A stretch of DNA of 64,000 nucleotides from assembly GCF_030013595.1 (NCBI RefSeq), contig NZ_CP122768.1. One strand, given 5' to 3'. A program made the position numbers and the translations under genes. The DNA comes from Escherichia coli. GTDB lineage: Bacteria > Pseudomonadota > Gammaproteobacteria > Enterobacterales > Enterobacteriaceae. The notes beneath the pieces are model-generated. The model was not told where the DNA came from. It did no database searches and was given only the letters and a program-made list of their open reading frames with translations. Below are positions 26,297 to 55,080 of the stretch, piece after piece. Numbering within the stretch: the first letter of the stretch is position 1; the number at the start of each line of letters is the position of its first letter.

Positions 26297-27499
26297 GTGG
26301 AAAGGTTTGATGCCATTATTATAGGCGCTGGTGCGGCGGGTATGTTCTGTTCTGCGCTGGCAGGTCAGGCAGGGCGCCGGGTTCTGCTGATCGATAATGG
26401 TAAAAAACCAGGGCGCAAAATCCTCATGTCTGGCGGTGGGCGCTGCAACTTTACCAATCTTTATGTCGAACCGGGCGCTTATCTGAGCCAGAATCCGCAT
26501 TTTTGTAAATCTGCACTCGCGCGTTTTACCCAGTGGGATTTCATTGATCTGGTCAATAAACACGGCATCACCTGGCACGAGAAAACGTTAGGGCAACTCT
26601 TCTGCGATGACTCCGCGCAGCAGATTGTCGACATGCTGGTGGATGAGTGCGAGAAGGGCAATGTGGCCTTCAGATTGCGTAGCGAAGTGCTGAGTGTGGC
26701 GAAGGATGAAACAGGCTTCACGCTTGAACTGAACGGCATGACTGTCGGTTGCGAAAAGCTGGTCATCGCGACCGGTGGACTGTCAATGCCGGGGCTGGGC
26801 GCGTCGCCGTTTGGTTATAAGATTGCCGAACAATTTGGCCTCAACGTGCTGCCGACCCGCGCGGGCCTGGTGCCATTCACTCTGCATAAACCGTTGCTCG
26901 AAGAGTTACAGGTGCTGGCGGGCGTGGCGGTACCTTCCGTGATTACCGCTGAAAACGGCACCGTTTTCCGTGAGAACTTACTCTTCACCCACCGCGGCTT
27001 ATCTGGACCGGCGGTGTTGCAAATTTCCAGCTACTGGCAACCGGGTGAATTTGTCAGTATCAATCTGCTACCGGATGTGGACCTCGAAACCTTCCTGAAT
27101 GAGCAGCGTAATGCACATCCGAATCAGAGCCTGAAAAACACTCTGGCGGTTCATCTACCGAAGCGGTTGGTTGAACGTTTACAACAACTCGGGCAAATCC
27201 CGGATGTCTCGCTAAAACAGCTCAACGTGCGTGACCAACAGGCACTGATTAGCACATTGACCGACTGGCGCGTACAACCCAACGGCACTGAAGGCTATCG
27301 CACTGCCGAAGTGACGCTCGGCGGCGTGGACACCAACGAACTCTCTTCACGGACGATGGAAGCGCGCAAAGTGCCTGGGCTGTACTTCATCGGCGAAGTG
27401 ATGGACGTCACCGGCTGGCTGGGGGGCTATAACTTCCAGTGGGCGTGGTCGAGTGCATGGGCTTGTGCGCAGGATTTGATTGCAGCGAAGTCGTCCTGA
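26297..27499 (+). CDS. yhiN: HI0933-family flavoprotein (NAD(FAD)-utilizing dehydrogenase)
   Basis: 400 aa; N-terminal FAD-binding IIGAGAAG motif. Confidence 0.85.
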   Translation: MERFDAIIIGAGAAGMFCSALAGQAGRRVLLIDNGKKPGRKILMSGGGRCNFTNLYVEPGAYLSQNPHFCKSALARFTQWDFIDLVNKHGITWHEKTLGQLFCDDSAQQIVDMLVDECEKGNVAFRLRSEVLSVAKDETGFTLELNGMTVGCEKLVIATGGLSMPGLGASPFGYKIAEQFGLNVLPTRAGLVPFTLHKPLLEELQVLAGVAVPSVITAENGTVFRENLLFTHRGLSGPAVLQISSYWQPGEFVSINLLPDVDLETFLNEQRNAHPNQSLKNTLAVHLPKRLVERLQQLGQIPDVSLKQLNVRDQQALISTLTDWRVQPNGTEGYRTAEVTLGGVDTNELSSRTMEARKVPGLYFIGEVMDVTGWLGGYNFQWAWSSAWACAQDLIAAKSS

Positions 27500-28867: not shown

Positions 28868-29249
28868 TTTAAACTCCTCAGGTATCCCTGCTAATATTGA
28901 AATGTGCATTAATGATAATTTCAGCCTGTTAATATAATGACGAGATATCATTAAAGACAAATGCATAGCATAACTATAGCGGGATTTACTTTGCAGAGCG
29001 CTACTTTTCAGCGTTCAAAAGGCCATGGTAAATAAATATTTATCCTAAGATTAATTCTTATTCTGTTGTTTTTTACAATTATCTTCCAGGGAGGGATTCT
29101 TTTTCATTATTTGGTAAAAGACCGGATGGTATCGGTGCTTAAAATCATCGAACATATAAGTATTATTGCTTTGTATCATCGTAAAAATGTCTTTCAGACA
29201 TGTGTCATTTATTTTGTTACTAACAAGTCAAAAATATCATGGGTTATTT

Positions 29250-44910: not shown

Positions 44911-45960
44911 TCATCCCGGTAACCGACTTTTCGGTCTGCCTGGCCCCAGTAAAATCGCCAGTTTGCTACCGCCTTTCGTAGTTTCCATCCAGATTTTACA
45001 CACGCTGGTTAATGGCACCGAAAGTAGCATCCCTACCGGGCCGAGCAGCCATCCCCAAATTAACAATGAAAGAAATACCACCATGGTGGACATCCCTAGG
45101 CGATGGCCCATCATCCGTGGTTCTAAAATATTGCCGATGACCATATGGACCACTAAAAACAATGCGCCGACCAGAATACATTCGTAAATACCATTAAAAA
45201 GCAGCACCTGAACCATTGGCGGTACGGCGGAAATTACCGCGCCGATATTGGGCACGTAGTTGAGCAAAAACGCCAGTACTGCCCACATCAGCGCAAACTG
45301 TACGCCCATTAGCGCCAGCCCCAGCCAGACGATGACACCTGTCCATAAACTGAGTAGCGTCTTCAATGCAAGATAGTGCGAAACGCCTTTAAGTGCGCGG
45401 TGTAATCCTGCGATGTGAATCTGTGGGTTATTCAGCGCAAAACGCATTTTGTAAGGGACGTGGCGCACTTCAAACAGCATGAAAACTACGGTCATCACCA
45501 GCAAAAGCACGCTCGCCATTGCCCCGGAAAGCCCGGTCATTAGCGCCGTGGTGAAGGTAACCACTTTTTCCGAGTCCATCCGCTGCAGTATTCGCTCCGG
45601 CGACATATGCAAATTAAGAAAAGGCAACATCTCCTGCAATTTAAAAAGTTTGCGCGTCAGCTCCTTATTAAACTTCGGCAGCATAGAGATAAATTCGTTA
45701 AACGATGCCGCCAGTACGCCGACCAGCGCAGTTAGTGCGATCAGCATCACCACCACCACAATCGTAATGGCAACGGGGCGTTGTACTCCCCGACGAATAA
45801 ACCAGGTGACGAGCGGGTTGAGGACGATGGCAAAAAACAGCGCCAGTCACAGCTGCACAATGATATCTGCCGCTGCGTGAATGCCCGCGAGGATCACTAC
45901 CAGCGAGGCCAGCTTGAGCAGAATGTGCATGCCCGTTTTATCGGGTTGAGGGGTTTCCAT
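44911..45960 (-). pseudogene. yhhT: AI-2E/PerM-family transporter YhhT, interrupted by in-frame TGA at codon 38 (45847..45849)
   Basis: N-terminal ORF (METPQPDKTGMHILLK...IIVQL) ends at TGA and the same frame continues directly into the 282-aa downstream ORF; total 349 codons. Confidence 0.7.
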
Positions 45961-46091
45961 TGGGGCTTCCTTGTGACTTTTTGTATTAAGTGTAGCGGGA
46001 GTCACGCCAGCAATATTCTGATTCTTACTGCTGATTTTCACGTCAGCACGTGGTAAAAATGAAACACTGTTGTAAAAATGTGGTGATCCTC

Positions 46092-47309
46092 ATGCCCGAA
46101 CCCGTAGCCGAACCCGCGCTAAACGGATTGCGCCTGAATTTGCGCATTGTCTCCATTGTCATGTTTAACTTCGCCAGCTACCTCACCATCGGGTTGCCGC
46201 TCGCTGTATTACCGGGCTATGTCCATGATGTGATGGGCTTTAGCGCTTTCTGGGCAGGATTGGTTATCAGCCTGCAATATTTCGCCACCTTGCTGAGCCG
46301 CCCTCATGCCGGACGTTACGCCGATTTGCTGGGACCCAAAAAGATTGTCGTCTTCGGTTTATGCGGCTGCTTTTTGAGCGGTCTGGGATATCTGACGGCA
46401 GGATTAACCGCCAGTCTGCCCGTCATCAGCCTGTTATTACTTTGCCTGGGACGCGTGATCCTTGGGATTGGGCAAAGTTTTGCCGGAACGGGATCGACCC
46501 TGTGGGGCGTTGGCGTGGTTGGCTCGCTGCATATCGGGCGGGTGATTTCGTGGAACGGCATTGTCACTTACGGGGCGATGGCGATGGGTGCGCCGTTAGG
46601 TGTCGTGTTTTATCACTGGGGCGGCTTGCAGGCGTTAGCGTTAATCATTATGGGCGTGGCGCTGGTGGCCATTTTGTTGGCGATCCCGCGTCCGACGGTA
46701 AAAGCCAGTAAAGGCAAACCGCTGCCGTTTCGCGCGGTGCTTGGGCGCGTCTGGCTGTACGGCATGGCGCTGGCACTGGCTTCCGCCGGATTTGGCGTTA
46801 TCGCCACTTTTATCACGCTGTTTTATGACGCTAAAGGTTGGGACGGTGCGGCTTTCGCGTTGACGCTGTTTAGCTGTGCGTTTGTCGGTACGCGTTTGTT
46901 ATTCCCTAACGGCATTAACCGTATCGGCGGCTTAAACGTAGCGATGATTTGCTTTAGCGTTGAGATAATCGGCCTGCTACTGGTTGGCGTGGCGACTATG
47001 CCGTGGATGGCGAAAATCGGCGTCTTACTCGCGGGGGCGGGGTTTTCGCTGGTATTCCCGGCATTGGGCGTAGTGGCGGTAAAAGCGGTTCCGCAGCAAA
47101 ATCAGGGGGCGGCGCTGGCAACCTACACCGTATTTATGGATTTATCGCTTGGCGTGACCGGACCACTGGCTGGGCTGGTGATGAGCTGGGCGGGCGTACC
47201 GGTGATTTATCTGGCGGCGGCGGGACTGGTCGCAATCGCGTTATTACTGACGTGGCGATTAAAAAAACGGCCTCCGGAACACGTCCCTGAGGCCGCCTCA
47301 TCATCTTAA
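46092..47309 (+). CDS. yhhS: MFS transporter
   Basis: 405 aa from MPEPVAEPALNGLRL; 12-TM MFS-like. Confidence 0.85.
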   Translation: MPEPVAEPALNGLRLNLRIVSIVMFNFASYLTIGLPLAVLPGYVHDVMGFSAFWAGLVISLQYFATLLSRPHAGRYADLLGPKKIVVFGLCGCFLSGLGYLTAGLTASLPVISLLLLCLGRVILGIGQSFAGTGSTLWGVGVVGSLHIGRVISWNGIVTYGAMAMGAPLGVVFYHWGGLQALALIIMGVALVAILLAIPRPTVKASKGKPLPFRAVLGRVWLYGMALALASAGFGVIATFITLFYDAKGWDGAAFALTLFSCAFVGTRLLFPNGINRIGGLNVAMICFSVEIIGLLLVGVATMPWMAKIGVLLAGAGFSLVFPALGVVAVKAVPQQNQGAALATYTVFMDLSLGVTGPLAGLVMSWAGVPVIYLAAAGLVAIALLLTWRLKKRPPEHVPEAASSS

Positions 47310-47312
47310 AAC

Positions 47313-47870
47313 TTACTGAATAACCAGCGTATTAATGATGTTTTCTGCGGTGGTCTGCGCTTTTTGCTGATCGTCAGCGGGCAGCGTAATTTGCATGGTC
47401 AGCAGTTGATTACCCACGTTACCCAGAATAACGGAAGAGTACGCCGTCTGGCCTTTCGCGGAGATAATGCTGTCTAACTGCTGCATTTTGTGACCTTTCA
47501 GCTCAATGGCTTTATTGGTTACCACTTGCAGCTGCGGATCGCGGCTACGTTGCTGATCTTCCAGACGCTTCGCCAACACCGCCAGATCTTCTTTCGGATC
47601 ATCGCCCATGATGACGATGACTGCTTTCTGCCCGGTGGCGTCGGACCAGACATGCATGTTATTGGCCTGCGTTCCCAGCTTACCGCTCTGGTCGGTCATA
47701 TCCGCTGGCAGCGAGAAACTTAACTTGCCATCAAGCAGGTTGACGGGATTTGCGGCAGCATTACTTTCCGCGACCGAACCCTGCGCCGTAGCGTTAGTGT
47801 CTTTATCATCACAGGCCGCAAGCCCCATAACCAGCAGGCCAATTCCGACATATTTAACCAGATTGCGCAT
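47313..47870 (-). CDS. dcrB: Periplasmic lipoprotein DcrB
   Basis: 185 aa from [22 protein letters not shown] (lipobox). Confidence 0.85.
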
Positions 47871-47942
47871 TGACTTCTTCCTTTCGATAAACGGCCATAA
47901 CGGCTCATTCATCCATCTTATCACAACTCTGATAACGAACCT

Positions 47943-48608
47943 TTAACTCGCCTGCAAAGCGTTGATTTCAGATTTATCTGCCAGTCTTTTCAACAGCATA
48001 TTGAGTAATACGCCATACATTGGCAGGAAGAAAACGATACTGATTAACACTTTGAAACAGTAATCGACCAGCGCGATTTCCATCCAGTGTTCAGCCATAA
48101 AGGCATCGGGGCTACGCCAGAAGGCAATGAAGAAGAAGGCCAGCGTGTCGCTGACGTTACCGAACAGTGTGGACGCTGTCGGTGCCAGCCACCAGCGGCG
48201 ACTCTGACGCAGGCGGTTAAAAACGTGCACGTCGAGGATCTGGCCCAGCGCGTAGGCCATGAAACTGGCGGTGGCGATACGGGCGACAAACAGGTTGAAG
48301 TGAGCGAGTGCGCCGAATCCCTGCCAGGAGCCCATATAGAACAGCGACGAGATGACGTAGGAGATCAGCAACGCCGGGATCATCACCGCAAAGATGATAC
48401 GACGGGCCAGCGGTGCGCCAAAAATACGCACGGTCAGGTCGGTAGCAAGGAAAATAAACGGAAAGCTAAACGCGCCCCAGGTGGTATGGAAACCAAAAAT
48501 GGAGACGGGAAGCTGAACCAGATAGTTACTGGAGGTGATCACCAGAAGATGAAATAACGATAACCAGAACAACGCCTTATAGCGTTGAGTTTGCGAGAAA
48601 ACGTTCAT
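47943..48608 (-). CDS. yhhQ: Queuosine precursor transporter (YhhQ family)
   Basis: 221 aa polytopic membrane protein. Confidence 0.85.
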   Translation of the reverse strand: MNVFSQTQRYKALFWLSLFHLLVITSSNYLVQLPVSIFGFHTTWGAFSFPFIFLATDLTVRIFGAPLARRIIFAVMIPALLISYVISSLFYMGSWQGFGALAHFNLFVARIATASFMAYALGQILDVHVFNRLRQSRRWWLAPTASTLFGNVSDTLAFFFIAFWRSPDAFMAEHWMEIALVDYCFKVLISIVFFLPMYGVLLNMLLKRLADKSEINALQAS

Positions 48609-48828
48609 ATTGTACCTTTTTGATTAACCATTGGGGTGAGGGAACCCAATACGTACGACACGTCTGTTACCTTAACATAATAACGTGCTGACCCTTTTTT
48701 CGAGCCGCCGCATGATACTGCTTTACGTTGACAATGCAATGGTTAATTTTCACGCAATCGTTAACCTGGTTTGCTTACGGACTCACAGGGCGTAAACTAG
48801 CGCCGTTTTTTTATGTGATGAGAAGAAA

Positions 48829-49074
48829 ATGACCGATCTCTTTTCCAGCCCTGACCACACACTCGACGCACTTGGCCTGCGCTGCCCGGAACCAGTAATG
48901 ATGGTGCGCAAAACAGTGCGCAATATGCAGCCAGGTGAAACGTTGCTGATTATTGCTGACGATCCGGCGACGACCCGCGATATTCCTGGGTTTTGTACCT
49001 TTATGGAACACGAATTGGTTGCGAAAGAGACGGATGGACTGCCTTATCGTTATTTGATTCGTAAAGGCGGTTGA
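48829..49074 (+). CDS. tusA: Sulfur carrier protein TusA
   Basis: 81 aa with conserved LRCPEPVMM active-site Cys motif. Confidence 0.95.
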
Positions 49075-49175
49075 TGGGGGCAGATTGGCTTCGATGCCGC
49101 CTTTTCCCCTCACCCTAACCCTCTCCCCAGAGGAGCGAGGGGACCGATCGCGCTCAATGTTGCGATCGGTTTGCC

Positions 49176-51374
49176 TTATTTCCTGCGCAACAGCCTTAAC
49201 GCATTCGCCGTCACCAGCACCGTCGCACCGGTATCTGCCAGCACTGCCAGCCACAGTCCGGTCATCCCTAACAGCGTCGTGACGAGGAAAACACCCTTCA
49301 GCCCCAGCGCAATAGTGATGTTCTGGCGGATATTGGCGTGAGTGGCGCGTGCCAGTTCAATCATTTGCACCAGGCCGCGCAGGTGGTTATGGGTTAATGC
49401 TGCATCGGCGGTTTCCAGCGCCACGTCTGTGCCGCTACCCATTGCAATCCCGATGGCGGCAGCTTTCATCGCTGGCGCGTCGTTAATACCATCACCGACC
49501 ATCGCCAGCGGCGCATGTTGATTCAGCTCGGTCACCGCTTTGACTTTATCTTCCGGCAACAGGCCCGCTTTAAATTCCAGCCCCAGTTCCCCGGCGATTG
49601 CCGCCGCTGCGCGTGGATTATCGCCGGTGAGGATCACTCCTTTAACCCCCAGCGCGTTCAGTTCACTGATAGCAGTTGCAGCATCGGCGCGCAGGGTATC
49701 CTGCAACGCAATGATACCCAGCACGTCATCATTACGTACTACCAGCACTACCGTTTGCCCGGCGCTTTCCAGTTCATTAATCAAACCAGCAAATGCAACA
49801 GCCGGATGTTTTCCGGCAGCGCATATCAACACGCGCTCACCGTTAACCTGCGCTTCAATGCCAGACCCAACCAGCGCCCGCTGTGATTGGGCGGCGGGAA
49901 TGGCGAGTTCAGCAACCTGTGCTTCGCGCACAATGGCTTGCGCCAGTGGATGCGTCGCGCCTTGCTCGACCGCCGCTGCCAGTGTCAGCAGTTCGGATTC
50001 ACTAATACCCGTTGCCGGATGAATCGCGGTAACGCGCGGTTTACCGACGGTCAGCGTACCGGTTTTATCAAACGCCACCTGGGTAACACGACCCAGTTGT
50101 TCCAGCGCCGCTCCGCCTTTAATTAACGCCCCACGACGCGCTGCTGCTGCCAGCCCGGAGGTAATCGCCGCAGGCGTTGAGATAACTAACGCACACGGGC
50201 AGCCAATCAGCAGCAGCGTCAGCCCTTTATAAATCCACTCCTGCCAGCTGGCGGCAAACAGCAGCGGTGGCACCAGCGTCACCAGCAGAGCGACGGCCAT
50301 AATCGCGGGCGTATAGATACGGCTGAAACGGTCGATAAACCGCTCAATGGGTGCGCGACGCTCTTCGGCTTCTTCGATCAGTTTCAGAATCCGGTCAATG
50401 GCGCTGGCACCCGGTTCTGACAGCACTTCCAGCGTTACCAGACGGTCTACGCTGGTGGCACCAGCAGGGACTTTATCGCCCGTTGCGCGCTCCACCGGAA
50501 TGGATTCGCCGGTCAGGGCGCTTTCATCAAAACTGGCAAACGGTGAGAGCAGTTTACCGTCGGCAGGCAAACGTCCACCTGCGGCGACTTCAATCACATC
50601 GCCAGGGCGCAGGCTGTTAATCGCCACCTCTTCACGCTCACCGTTACGCAGGCGCGTGGCGGTTTCCGGTTTCAGCGCCATTAACGCGCTAACGCCCTGA
50701 CGCGCGCGGCTGGCGGCCCAGCCTTCCAGTCGTTCACCAATCAAAAACAGCAGCAACACCATCGCAGCTTCAGCCGTTGCGCCAATAAACAGCGCACCAA
50801 TAGCGGCTACGCTCATTAAGGTTTCAATGGCGAAGTAGCTGCCGGATTTGATCAGCCGTAATGCCTGACGAGCAATCGGGTACAGCCCAACCAGCGTGGT
50901 CGCGATAAACGCCAGTTGCCCGAACGGATGATTGAACTGCTCCAGCCCCCAACTGATTGCCATCAACACGATTAGCGTAATCAGCGGCAAATTCTCTTTC
51001 AGGCGTGATGTTTGCGGTTCGTCGGCGGACTGTTCATCGCGCAGGGAATAGCCCGCTTTTTGCACCGCAGATTCAACTTGTGCACGAATGTCATTGTCGG
51101 CATCGACCACCAGTTTTTCGGTGGCGAACAACACCTGCACCTGATTCACGCCTGCAAGCTGGCGCACGGCATTTTCTACCTTGCGCGCACAGGCGGCGCA
51201 GTCCATGCCGCTGACTTTCCAGCTATAGCGGGTGCCGGAGACGTTTTCAGAGAGCGTTGGCGTGCTGGAACATGCGCCGTCGCAGCAACAGTCGTTGGCG
51301 TTCTGTACCGTGGTTAGCGGTTTGAACGCAGCAAATTGAGGGGCTTTCTTGCCGTGATTGTCAGGAGTCGACAT
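49176..51374 (-). CDS. zntA: Zn/Cd/Pb-translocating P-type ATPase
   Basis: 732 aa with GMDCAAC metal-binding motif, CPC transduction motif and DKTGTLT phosphorylation site. Confidence 0.95.
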   Translation of the reverse strand: MSTPDNHGKKAPQFAAFKPLTTVQNANDCCCDGACSSTPTLSENVSGTRYSWKVSGMDCAACARKVENAVRQLAGVNQVQVLFATEKLVVDADNDIRAQVESAVQKAGYSLRDEQSADEPQTSRLKENLPLITLIVLMAISWGLEQFNHPFGQLAFIATTLVGLYPIARQALRLIKSGSYFAIETLMSVAAIGALFIGATAEAAMVLLLFLIGERLEGWAASRARQGVSALMALKPETATRLRNGEREEVAINSLRPGDVIEVAAGGRLPADGKLLSPFASFDESALTGESIPVERATGDKVPAGATSVDRLVTLEVLSEPGASAIDRILKLIEEAEERRAPIERFIDRFSRIYTPAIMAVALLVTLVPPLLFAASWQEWIYKGLTLLLIGCPCALVISTPAAITSGLAAAARRGALIKGGAALEQLGRVTQVAFDKTGTLTVGKPRVTAIHPATGISESELLTLAAAVEQGATHPLAQAIVREAQVAELAIPAAQSQRALVGSGIEAQVNGERVLICAAGKHPAVAFAGLINELESAGQTVVLVVRNDDVLGIIALQDTLRADAATAISELNALGVKGVILTGDNPRAAAAIAGELGLEFKAGLLPEDKVKAVTELNQHAPLAMVGDGINDAPAMKAAAIGIAMGSGTDVALETADAALTHNHLRGLVQMIELARATHANIRQNITIALGLKGVFLVTTLLGMTGLWLAVLADTGATVLVTANALRLLRRK

Positions 51375-51416
51375 GGCATCCTCCGGTTAAGTTTTTTCTC
51401 ATTAACCGAAGGATAC

Positions 51417-51438
51417 ACTCTGGAGTCGACTCCAGAGT
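51417..51438 (-). promoter_or_regulatory. ZntR (MerR-family) operator within the zntA promoter spacer
   Basis: Perfect 22-bp palindrome actctggagtcgactccagagt between -35 TTGACT and a -10-like hexamer with 20-bp spacing, upstream of the zntA start. Confidence 0.75.
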
Positions 51439-51447
51439 CAAGTTTTA

Positions 51448-52074
51448 TCAGAGATACAGCGAGCGGACGATGAGGAAATGACCGGCAAAGTAGCAGGCCG
51501 CAGCAATCGCGTTATCCGCACGGAAGCGGCGGCGATAGTGGCTCCCCAGCCAGACAAAGTTACTGATAAACAGCAACGAAGCGCCAACAAACGCAGAGAG
51601 CGCCGGAGCGGTCGGACGGAAGAACCAAAGTTCACCTGCCAGCCACACCATCACCAGCGTCATGCCGATAAACGTGCAGATAGGCCAACGGTACTCTTCC
51701 AGCCGCGTCCAGATAATCGCCAGTAACAGCGCACCCAGAACCAGCAACACCAGTGGCAGAGGCCAGAAGAAAGAGAGCGTCATCTGACTGGCGAAATAGA
51801 TGGTGTACAGCAGGTGCGAGAGGAAAAACGCGCCGATGGCGTACATCAGACGTTGACGTGGCAACAGGGTTAGCGCATCGCCCAGCAGTGAGGCGCACAG
51901 CCCCGCCAGCACCAGATAGCTAATGGCGTCGAACATCGGCGCTTGCCAGGCCAGTAACAGCAGGAGAAGAAGGGTTAACGGTTTAAACACCCAGCGTTGC
52001 CAGGTTGGCCCACGATACGATGCATCCACAGATAGCCATGCGGAAAGACAGACAGCGATAAACGACCAAAGCAT
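51448..52074 (-). CDS. yhhN: Inner membrane protein YhhN
   Basis: 208 aa polytopic membrane ORF. Confidence 0.8.
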
Positions 52075-52214
52075 CTTAGTTCCTTGAATTCGTTATTTTT
52101 TCGTAAGCGGAATGCCTACGGTCTTGCTTCCAGTTTAGTGGCGAGGGTGGACGGATGACAACACCATAACTGGCAGGGTATGCTTAATTCCGCATTTTCC
52201 GATGAGGGATAAAG

Positions 52215-52574
52215 ATGAGCAAACCACCTCTTTTCTTTATTGTTATCATTGGCTTAATCATCGTCGCCGCATCGTTTCGTTTTATGCAACAACGACGGGA
52301 AAAAGCTGATAATGATATGGCTCCGCTCCAGCAAAAGCTGGTGGTGGTGAGCAACAAGCGGGAAAACCCGATTAACGATCGCCGTTCGCGCCAGCAGGAA
52401 GTGACTCCGGCAGGCACCAGTATGCGCTATGAGGCAAGCTTCAAACCGCAAAGCGGAGGAATGGAGCAGACGTTTCGCCTCGACGCCCAGCAGTACCACG
52501 CCCTGACAGTGGGCGATAAAGGTACGCTGAGCTATAAAGGAACGCGCTTTGTCAGCTTTGTTGGCGAACAATAA
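52215..52574 (+). CDS. yhhM: DUF2500-family membrane-anchored protein YhhM
   Basis: 119 aa with N-terminal TM segment. Confidence 0.8.
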   Translation: MSKPPLFFIVIIGLIIVAASFRFMQQRREKADNDMAPLQQKLVVVSNKRENPINDRRSRQQEVTPAGTSMRYEASFKPQSGGMEQTFRLDAQQYHALTVGDKGTLSYKGTRFVSFVGEQ

Positions 52575-52576
52575 GG

Positions 52577-52846
52577 TTATTTTTTAACTTTAAATTTCTT
52601 CTGCCAGACCAACAGTTCAAACACGCCGAAAAGGAAAATCCGCACCTTTTCGGCGGTGGTCATCTGCGGGCCATCTTTCGGTAAAGTGGATTTCAATAGC
52701 GCCAGTTGCATACCATGCATCAGCACGGTAAAAATCAGCGCCACGTTAACGAAAATATTCAGCGGGCGCGGGAAGGGATGCACCAGATTGAGGATTAAAA
52801 ATCCCCAAACGCAGAGCATTAACAAACGACCAATATTAATCAGCAT
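52577..52846 (-). CDS. yhhL: Small inner membrane protein YhhL (DUF1145)
   Basis: 89 aa from MLINIGRLLMLCVWGFLILNL; start overlaps rsmD stop. Confidence 0.75.
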   Translation of the reverse strand: MLINIGRLLMLCVWGFLILNLVHPFPRPLNIFVNVALIFTVLMHGMQLALLKSTLPKDGPQMTTAEKVRIFLFGVFELLVWQKKFKVKK

Positions 52847-53432
52847 CACTTTCTCCTTGTGCTTCGCGTTGATACAGCCGATAAGCCACCTGACCCGCCA
52901 CTTTTTCCCGATGTAATGACCAGTTTGCCGGAACAGTGGGCAGACCGTTTTCGACTTCGCTTTCGACATAAATCAGGGCTTCGTCAGCCAGCCAGCCGTT
53001 ATCTTCCAGTAAATTTATCGTCTCTTCTAACAAGCCACGGCGGAACGGTGGATCGACAAACACGATATTATGCGGTGTGCCTTTTTGCGCCAGGAATGAC
53101 ATCGCGTTGCTGTTCACCACGCGTGCATTGCCTGCTTTTAGTGTCGCCAGATTCTTAATTAACTGCTGAGAAACTGCACGATCCATCTCAATCAACGTGG
53201 CCCCCGCAGCGTAGCGCGATAACGCTTCCAGCCCCAGCGCGCCGCTCCCGGCGAAGCAATCCAGACATTGGGCGTCAACAATGACCGGAGCCAGCCAGTT
53301 AAACAACGTTTCGCGTACGCGGTCGGTGGTGGGCCGCAGACCTGGGCTATCAGGAACCGGGAGTTTACGGCCTCGCCACTGCCCGCCAATAATGCGGATT
53401 TGGCCGCTGCCGGAATGATTCGGTTTTTTCAT
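52836..53432 (-). CDS. rsmD: 16S rRNA m2G966 methyltransferase
   Basis: 198 aa with SAM-binding DCFAGSGALG motif. Confidence 0.9.
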   Translation of the reverse strand: MKKPNHSGSGQIRIIGGQWRGRKLPVPDSPGLRPTTDRVRETLFNWLAPVIVDAQCLDCFAGSGALGLEALSRYAAGATLIEMDRAVSQQLIKNLATLKAGNARVVNSNAMSFLAQKGTPHNIVFVDPPFRRGLLEETINLLEDNGWLADEALIYVESEVENGLPTVPANWSLHREKVAGQVAYRLYQREAQGESDAD

Positions 53433-53581
53433 GATAAATTGCTCAATCCGCCAGATAACACATACTTGCAGGCGGTGATGTGAATTAAGTTAAGTGATAG
53501 ACTATTTCATCATTTTTTTAGCTGCTATGTACATAGCGTTAACGCTGTGCCATGAAGCAACAGCGAGGAGTGTAGTCGCAA

Positions 53582-55078
53582 ATGGCGAAAGAAAAAAAAC
53601 GTGGCTTTTTTTCCTGGCTGGGCTTTGGTCAAAAAGAGCAGACCCCGGAAAAAGAGACAGAAGTTCAGAATGAACAACCAGTTGTAGAAGAAATCGTTCA
53701 GGCGCAAGAGCTTGCGAAGGCTTCTGAACAAGCCGTTGAAGAGCAGCCGCAGGCGCATACTGAGGCCGAGGCGGAAACTTTTGCTGCCGACGTTGTGGAA
53801 GTCACTGAACAGGTTGCTGAAAGTGAAAAAGCGCAGCCTGAAGCGGAAGTCGTTGCACAGCCGGAACCGGTCGTAGAAGAAACGCCGGAGCCAGTGGCTA
53901 TCGAACGTGAAGAGCTGCCGTTGCCGGAGGACGTCAACGCCGAAGAGGTTTCGCCAGAAGAGTGGCAGGCTGAAGCGGAAACCGTAGAGATTGTCGAAGC
54001 GGCGGAAGAAGAAGCGGCTAAAGAAGAAATCACCGACGAAGAGCTGGAAGCACAGGCGCTGGCTGCCGAAGCGGCAGAAGAGGCGGTGATGGTGGTTCCT
54101 CCGGCAGAAGAAGAGCAGCCGGTGGAAGAAATCGCTCAGGAGCAGGAAAAACCGACCAAAGAAGGTTTCTTCGCGCGCCTGAAACGCAGCCTGTTAAAAA
54201 CCAAAGAAAATCTTGGTTCCGGATTTATCAGCCTGTTCCGCGGTAAAAAAATCGACGATGATCTGTTTGAAGAGCTGGAAGAACAGCTGTTGATCGCCGA
54301 TGTGGGCGTGGAAACCACACGTAAAATTATCACCAATCTGACTGAAGGCGCATCCCGCAAGCAGCTTCGTGATGCCGAGGCGCTCTATGGCCTGCTGAAA
54401 GAAGAGATGGGCGAGATTCTGGCGAAAGTCGATGAGCCGCTGAATGTTGAAGGTAAAACGCCGTTCGTGATCCTGATGGTGGGCGTCAACGGTGTGGGTA
54501 AAACCACGACGATTGGTAAGCTGGCACGTCAGTTTGAGCAGCAGGGTAAATCGGTGATGCTGGCGGCGGGCGATACTTTCCGTGCGGCAGCGGTTGAACA
54601 GCTTCAGGTCTGGGGTCAGCGCAACAATATTCCGGTGATTGCCCAGCATACCGGTGCGGATTCCGCCTCTGTTATCTTCGACGCCATTCAGGCAGCTAAA
54701 GCGCGTAATATCGACGTCCTGATTGCCGATACCGCCGGACGCCTGCAGAACAAATCGCACCTGATGGAAGAGTTGAAGAAAATCGTCCGCGTGATGAAGA
54801 AACTCGACGTTGAAGCGCCGCATGAAGTTATGCTGACTATTGATGCCAGCACCGGGCAGAACGCGGTAAGCCAGGCCAAACTGTTCCACGAAGCCGTTGG
54901 CTTAACCGGCATCACGCTAACGAAACTGGACGGCACGGCGAAAGGCGGGGTAATTTTCTCGGTGGCTGACCAGTTTGGTATCCCTATCCGCTACATTGGT
55001 GTCGGCGAACGTATTGAGGATTTGCGTCCGTTTAAGGCGGATGACTTTATAGAGGCACTTTTTGCCCGAGAGGATTAA
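53582..55078 (+). CDS. ftsY: Signal recognition particle receptor
   Basis: 498 aa; acidic Glu/Ala-rich N-terminal domain then NG GTPase domain (GVNGVGKTTT, DTAGR). Confidence 0.95.
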   Translation: MAKEKKRGFFSWLGFGQKEQTPEKETEVQNEQPVVEEIVQAQELAKASEQAVEEQPQAHTEAEAETFAADVVEVTEQVAESEKAQPEAEVVAQPEPVVEETPEPVAIEREELPLPEDVNAEEVSPEEWQAEAETVEIVEAAEEEAAKEEITDEELEAQALAAEAAEEAVMVVPPAEEEQPVEEIAQEQEKPTKEGFFARLKRSLLKTKENLGSGFISLFRGKKIDDDLFEELEEQLLIADVGVETTRKIITNLTEGASRKQLRDAEALYGLLKEEMGEILAKVDEPLNVEGKTPFVILMVGVNGVGKTTTIGKLARQFEQQGKSVMLAAGDTFRAAAVEQLQVWGQRNNIPVIAQHTGADSASVIFDAIQAAKARNIDVLIADTAGRLQNKSHLMEELKKIVRVMKKLDVEAPHEVMLTIDASTGQNAVSQAKLFHEAVGLTGITLTKLDGTAKGGVIFSVADQFGIPIRYIGVGERIEDLRPFKADDFIEALFARED

Positions 55079-55080
55079 CA

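Follow-up and report, generated by a model that had tools for sequence, protein, structure and literature searches.

An in-frame opal codon in yhhT is very probably a recent, clone-specific loss-of-function allele in a natural Escherichia coli clone

In the 64-kb stretch of Escherichia coli DNA analysed here (the window), the AI-2E family transporter gene yhhT is interrupted by a TGA at codon 38. The lesion is very probably a recent, heritable and clone-specific nonsense allele, and its sequence predicts loss of function. The proposed course of events is as follows: a single T>G transversion converted the Leu38 codon TTA to an opal stop in the ancestry of a small natural clone of E. coli, once its branch had separated from the one that leads to two pig isolates, HCP5S3_I2 and LCP30S3_I5. 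Ribosomes would still start at the native start codon and would terminate after 37 residues, releasing the first helix (H1) and the start of the second (H2), and the remaining ~940 nt of the message would be left mostly untranslated. A product restarted at ATG72 would begin inside H3, without H1 and H2, and would be non-functional. UGA-C may be read as Trp by a minor share of the ribosomes, a few percent at most.

An event of this kind is already known: it is an ordinary gene knockout, with nothing that challenges current understanding. It is unlikely that the allele is not null, either by read-through of UGA-C to an L38W protein or through production of the 37-aa H1 peptide along with the ATG72 product, or that selection, and not drift, fixed the yhhT and chuW lesions together in this clone. 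If the allele were non-null or its loss selected, the clone would be a natural tool for finding the role of YhhT.

The interrupted yhhT frame and its ancestral codon

The interrupted coding sequence lies on the minus strand (44911..45960). On translation, the frame comprises 37 codons (METPQPDKTGMHILLKLASLVVILAGIHAAADIIVQL), a TGA, 311 sense codons and the natural stop, where intact alleles comprise 349 codons and a stop. The TGA occupies 45847..45849 (minus strand, mutated base 45848) in the raw context CAG CTG TGA CTG GCG, with C as the next base (UGA-C). An earlier note on this DNA, made from the letters alone, had reported an in-frame opal stop at codon 38 and a frame open for 311 codons beyond it; the raw sequence and the translation confirmed the coordinates, the codon number and the open frame.

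Two remnants are left on the minus strand: an N-terminal one of 37 codons (METPQ...IIVQL, 45850..45960), the exact product of which is on record, and a C-terminal ORF from ATG72 (278 codons and a stop, 44911..45747), which is the one emitted by gene callers. In the mechanical ORF list the gene is split into two pieces, one N-terminal (64 aa/37 aa, ending at 45847) and one of 282 aa (44911..45759). The native Shine-Dalgarno-like (SD-like) sequence AAGGAAG (45966..45972, minus strand) is intact, as seen in the raw sequence and by anti-SD scoring. Downstream of yhhT, at a distance of 54 nt, acpT (44269..44856, minus strand) is intact in the ORF list and has zero differences from its counterpart in HCP5S3_I2.

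The identity of the gene as yhhT, an AI-2E family transporter, as named in the earlier note, was supported by a profile match, by synteny and by near-identity to annotated yhhT. The intact YhhT of HCP5S3_I2 matches Pfam PF01594 (E = 1.5e-84) over residues 14-328 (model positions 2-326 of 327), and the gene order of the window is the conventional one (yhhS | yhhT-acpT-nikA), so that the profile match and the position between yhhS and acpT/nikA that characterise an intact ortholog are both found at this locus. The intact gene (b3474; WP_085459106.1 in HCP5S3_I2, WP_001300885.1 in K-12) occupies the same locus with the same synteny and has TTA at codon 38, whereas the window has TGA and its frame is broken after 37 residues. 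The uninterrupted frame for the whole six-helix, two-hairpin protomer is thus missing from the window: the stop removes about 92% of the PF01594 domain (residues 14-328), although the 278-aa remnant is still recorded as matching this profile. Among the complete E. coli genomes, 5,425 of 5,426 carry yhhT at 95% identity or more. The possibility of a chance ORF was rejected, since the interrupted frame and an annotated intact yhhT have all but 1 of 1,050 nt in common (99.9% identity).

Upstream of the gene, in the yhhS-yhhT intergenic region, the 18-mer ATGAAACACTGTTGTAAA (46059..46076) is unchanged from the K-12 PhoB site; in K-12, this sequence is a PhoB ChIP-chip site, or PhoB-box-like site, upstream of yhhT (PMC3465305). 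The broken gene seems to have kept an intact promoter region.

For the ancestral codon, the window was compared with intact alleles. The closest complete genome, that of the pig isolate HCP5S3_I2 (NZ_CM149870.1), has a yhhT identical to that of the window at 1,049 of 1,050 positions. The sole difference is at gene position 113 (T in the relative, G in the window), which changes TTA (Leu38) to TGA; on the plus strand, the ancestral A at 45848 is replaced by C in the window. The K-12 gene is identical at 1,031 of 1,050 positions (19 nt different) and has TTA at codon 38, as do VCSW5 and three B2-type genomes. Since A at 45848 is shared by the closest genome and by the outgroup VCSW5, the window state is derived. 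The stop stands where intact orthologs, the nearest relative included, have a sense codon, as in a nonsense pseudogene. By codon, the differences between the window and K-12 yhhT are 14 synonymous and 4 missense, which indicates that yhhT is normally under purifying selection.

These comparisons agree with the earlier note in that the lesion is a point mutation, a single base differing from the yhhT of the closest genome. The note had favoured TGG (Trp) as the ancestral codon, and in this it was mistaken: every comparator examined (HCP5S3_I2, K-12 and others) has TTA. The comparison with K-12 and other strains that it proposed did yield intact alleles, with TTA and not TGG at codon 38; its statement that TGG in reference alleles would refute the lesion does not apply, the ancestral codon being TTA; what matters is whether TGA recurs in independent assemblies of the clone, and it does.

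Predicted fate of the message and of the protein

The consequences for the protein were assessed with TqsA (YdgG), the cryo-EM structure of which is available (PDB 7NB6). Of the four E. coli AI-2E paralogs, YhhT is the nearest relative of TqsA (46% identity). YhhT has been purified, and its pentameric state was deduced from its size and from side views (PMC9475539). The YhhT of HCP5S3_I2 was aligned to 7nb6 without gaps (residues 8-339 to 8-339, E = 5.6e-90), and because the alignment is ungapped the helix boundaries of TqsA (H1 7-29, H2 31-57, H3 61-109; PMC9475539) can be transferred to YhhT. On that basis, the stop would interrupt the horizontal helix H2 after its first seven residues, and the 37-aa remnant would consist of H1 and seven residues of H2. 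The packing of H1 between neighbours is vital for the pentamer in TqsA and YdiK, and H2 crosses TMH5 at the domain interface (PMC9475539). Export of AI-2 has been proposed for TqsA only, which is a different gene, and the window allele would provide at best H1 and an H2 stub. Translation of the 37-residue peptide is expected, because the native SD-like sequence and the start codon are intact.

The stop is a UGA followed by C, which is reportedly the weakest stop signal of E. coli. UGA_C is also cited as a weaker terminator (PMC9841425), and in a K-12 reporter the read-through of UGA by Trp-tRNA in competition with RF2 was ~2% at 37°C and ~4% at 25°C (PMC10570021). Position 38 is hydrophobic in H2 (Leu in YhhT, Ile in TqsA) and might tolerate Trp, in which case the allele would be leaky and functional full-length YhhT L38W would be produced. 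The K-12 values, however, depend on a weak RF2: the K-12 variant is unusually weak and B-type RF2 terminates better at UGA (PMC5373646), and a natural isolate is likely to carry the efficient RF2 (prfB lies outside the window). For a membrane protein that is poorly expressed to begin with, a yield of a few percent probably falls short of function, and fold and Rfam scans around the stop found no sequence or structure that stimulates read-through. Functional leakiness is improbable on these grounds, and full-length L38W protein is expected to reach trace levels at most in a natural isolate.

Resumption of translation beyond the stop was considered at the first in-frame start codons, GTG68-GTG71 and ATG72. 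Only ATG72 has appreciable anti-SD complementarity: the SD-like sequence GGUGGUGG upstream of it is predicted to pair at -6.2 kcal/mol, as strongly as the native site (-5.4 kcal/mol). ATG72 would be the only plausible reinitiation site; it is the start chosen by gene callers, its 278-aa product retains the PF01594 match, and given the SD-like sequence a truncated protein may be made. On the other side, 34 codons (99 nt) separate ATG72 from the stop upstream of it, and the SD-like element leaves almost no spacing, since it abuts the start codon. By the ungapped TqsA alignment, the product would begin inside H3, would lack both H2 and the H1 on which the pentamer depends, and is not expected to function. 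A gene re-started at GTG68-ATG72 that yields an N-terminally truncated but working transporter is therefore a distinctly poor prospect. The earlier note had suggested that restart at a downstream GTG or ATG be checked for such a transporter: the SD-like site and the 278-aa ORF were there, but the spacing is poor and the predicted product is without H1 and H2.

Comparable pseudogenes with a single nonsense change occur in E. coli and Shigella lineages, and the textbook analogue is the rpoS amber allele (codon 33) found in some K-12 stocks, with downstream reinitiation. Both cases are early point nonsense changes in a conserved gene, fixed in a clone and with a possible restart downstream. For rpoS amber, a functional truncated product has been reported; the yhhT restart product, unlike it, would lack structural elements needed for assembly.

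If yhhT and acpT are co-transcribed, Rho-dependent polarity on acpT is possible, as the early stop in yhhT is predicted to place ~940 nt of mostly untranslated message ahead of acpT. The first 78 nt past the stop are C-rich and G-poor (32% vs 24%), which may be taken as a weak hint of such polarity. No minus-strand terminator or promoter was found between yhhT and acpT with a weak consensus scan, which also missed any yhhT promoter.

Frequency and authenticity of the TGA allele

For allele queries, a 33-mer centred on the mutant base was used, such that every 28-base megablast seed had to include this base. With the TGA 33-mer, no match was found by megablast in the 5,426 complete E. coli genomes, while the positive-control TTA 33-mer was found exactly in 4,159 of them. 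In a sensitive-mode search, the TGA 33-mer was found with one mismatch in 4,159 genomes and with two mismatches in 1,265; three sampled members of the latter class have TTA together with a synonymous CTG>CTA change at codon 37. An exact 41-mer with TGA was found in no JGI metagenome contig, a result that tells only of the rarity of the allele.

The allele was recovered in data other than the window. The exact 278-aa and 37-aa products carry neighbouring NCBI accession numbers (STE04256.1 and STE04257.1, respectively), and the 37-aa product is also recorded as MDM9318289.1; the former is present on 52 contigs and the latter on 103 (longest contig 3.43 Mb). The NCBI draft GCA_021649585.1 carries the TGA and is 100% identical to the window over 34911..55747 (20,837 nt). 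The Logan assembly of SRR30668470 carries it as well, with one SNP (41072) relative to the window in 14,223 nt, and owing to this SNP elsewhere SRR30668470 is regarded as a separate isolate.

Were the TGA a sequencing or assembly error, the true codon would be TTA and yhhT intact; such a reading would fit the rarity of the allele, absent from all 5,426 complete genomes and from the JGI metagenome contigs. It is contradicted by the presence of the TGA in independent data (the STE04256/STE04257 genome, GCA_021649585.1 and SRR30668470), in which the allele is thus reproduced, and the site lies outside homopolymers and outside Dam/Dcm motifs. The chance of an error is accordingly very small, and assembly-level evidence excludes an error in a single genome for practical purposes.

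Programmed recoding, with the UGA read as selenocysteine or deliberately read through, has nothing in its favour other than the codon itself and can be set aside as having a negligible chance: all orthologs examined have Leu (TTA) and TqsA has Ile, with neither UGA nor Cys conserved at position 38; the codon is one mutational step from that of the closest relative; no SECIS-type hairpin was found on folding the 60 nt that begin with the UGA (MFE -8.6 kcal/mol; shuffled sequences averaged -10.95, z = +0.91, and 169 of 200 folded at least as well as the native sequence); no Rfam match at E <= 1 was found in 44700..46200; and no tRNA gene was found in the 64-kb window.

Codon 37 (45850..45852) is the site of a common synonymous CTG/CTA polymorphism, 1,265 of 5,424 genomes being in the two-mismatch class. 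In addition, a draft contig (GCA_012930485.1, JABAWO010000023.1) from another lineage, with 97.9% identity, breaks off exactly at the first base of codon 38 and so mimics the 37-aa product. This contig end, and the roughly two-fold number of contigs with the 37-aa fragment, raised the idea that codon 38 is a mutational hotspot. This idea was dropped, as no other stop allele of independent origin was found at this codon; at least part of the excess of 37-aa contigs is explained by partial genes at contig ends near the codon 37 polymorphism.

History of the window, chuW and the clone

Across the 64 kb, 25 SNPs and two 1-bp indels separate the window from HCP5S3_I2, and the window lacks a ~35-kb Tn7-like sil/pco element of that genome. 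By outgroup polarisation, 11 SNPs were placed on the window branch: 5 synonymous, 2 missense, 2 nonsense (yhhT and chuW) and 2 intergenic. Their spectrum comprises 7 G:C>A:T, 1 G:C>T:A, 2 A:T>T:A and 1 A:T>C:G changes. The seven derived transitions are without exception G:C>A:T, with no A:T>G:C change among them. Such an AT-biased spectrum is that expected of recent and largely unselected mutation, and it argues against import by recombination. A mutator signature was considered, the yhhT change being an A:T>C:G (mutT-like) one, and was rejected because this is only one of the 11 derived SNPs and the spectrum is normal. The loss of yhhT appears young, as the gene has undergone no further decay.

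Nonsense changes make up 2 of the 9 coding SNPs, against ~3.4% of the possible coding SNPs in these genes (P = 0.03-0.04). This excess was set aside as evidence of selection, since the P value is post hoc and the window had already been flagged.

The second nonsense lesion is in chuW (2391..3728, minus strand), in which codon 228 is changed from TGG to TAG (amber; stop at 3045..3047). The earlier note had counted chuW with yhhT as two point nonsense lesions in 64 kb, and the in-frame stop at codon 228 was found as described. A TGG-to-stop change does therefore occur in the window, and belongs to chuW and not to yhhT. Two further window-derived substitutions are present in chuW (A126S at 3353 and a synonymous change at 2598), so that 3 of the 11 window-private SNPs fall within its 1.3 kb. 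The 227-aa N-terminal fragment of ChuW is on record as STE04219.1, from the same NCBI genome as STE04256/STE04257, and is found on 51 contigs; three contigs with this fragment have 0, 1 and 2 SNPs relative to the window in 3.7 kb.

The two lesions are alike in that both are point nonsense changes on the same branch, recorded in the same NCBI genome and on similar numbers of contigs (51 for chuW and 52 for yhhT). They differ in that chuW encodes a radical SAM enzyme of anaerobic heme degradation, was interrupted by a G>A transition to TAG and carries two more derived substitutions. Together, the lesions would be markers of a single, small natural clone within which there is some diversity; we infer their co-occurrence across all isolates from the similar contig counts and the one shared NCBI record.

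For annotation, yhhT should be treated here as a pseudogene with an ancestral TTA, and not as two small genes as in STE04256/STE04257. The yhhT TGA and the chuW amber codon can serve as a SNP lineage marker for the clone. Its isolates would be natural yhhT knockouts, with intact yhhT in the nearest complete-genome relatives HCP5S3_I2 and LCP30S3_I5, and could be used in the search for a phenotype of YhhT, an AI-2E paralog (TC 2.A.86) for which no test of substrate or phenotype was found in the literature. An apparent induction of yhhT by lithocholic acid in Nissle 1917 was discarded, having been traced to an rRNA-like read artefact.

Other features of the window were recorded as follows. The Tn7-like element of HCP5S3_I2 (~35.1 kb, NZ_CM149870.1 309782..344898) carries tnsA/B/C/D-like genes and the sil and pco silver/copper resistance clusters. 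It has TGT...ACA ends with AAAGTTGTA repeats and a 5-bp ATTGC target duplication, and sits 16-20 nt before the yhiN stop; the corresponding site of the window, at the 3' end of yhiN (27479..27483), is empty. At 10089, within a hypothetical gene (ORF 10069..11184, minus strand), the window differs by a 1-bp indel from HCP5S3_I2, in which the ORF is intact (407 aa); isolate 362, whose copy of the gene carries a frameshift annotation, shares the shorter state of the window. A window-derived C>T at 29240 could affect the ribosome-binding site of a DUF4049 gene, whose start (29250) lies 10 nt further downstream. Finally, a hicA/hicB toxin-antitoxin pair is located between yhhJ and nikR (38085..38716).
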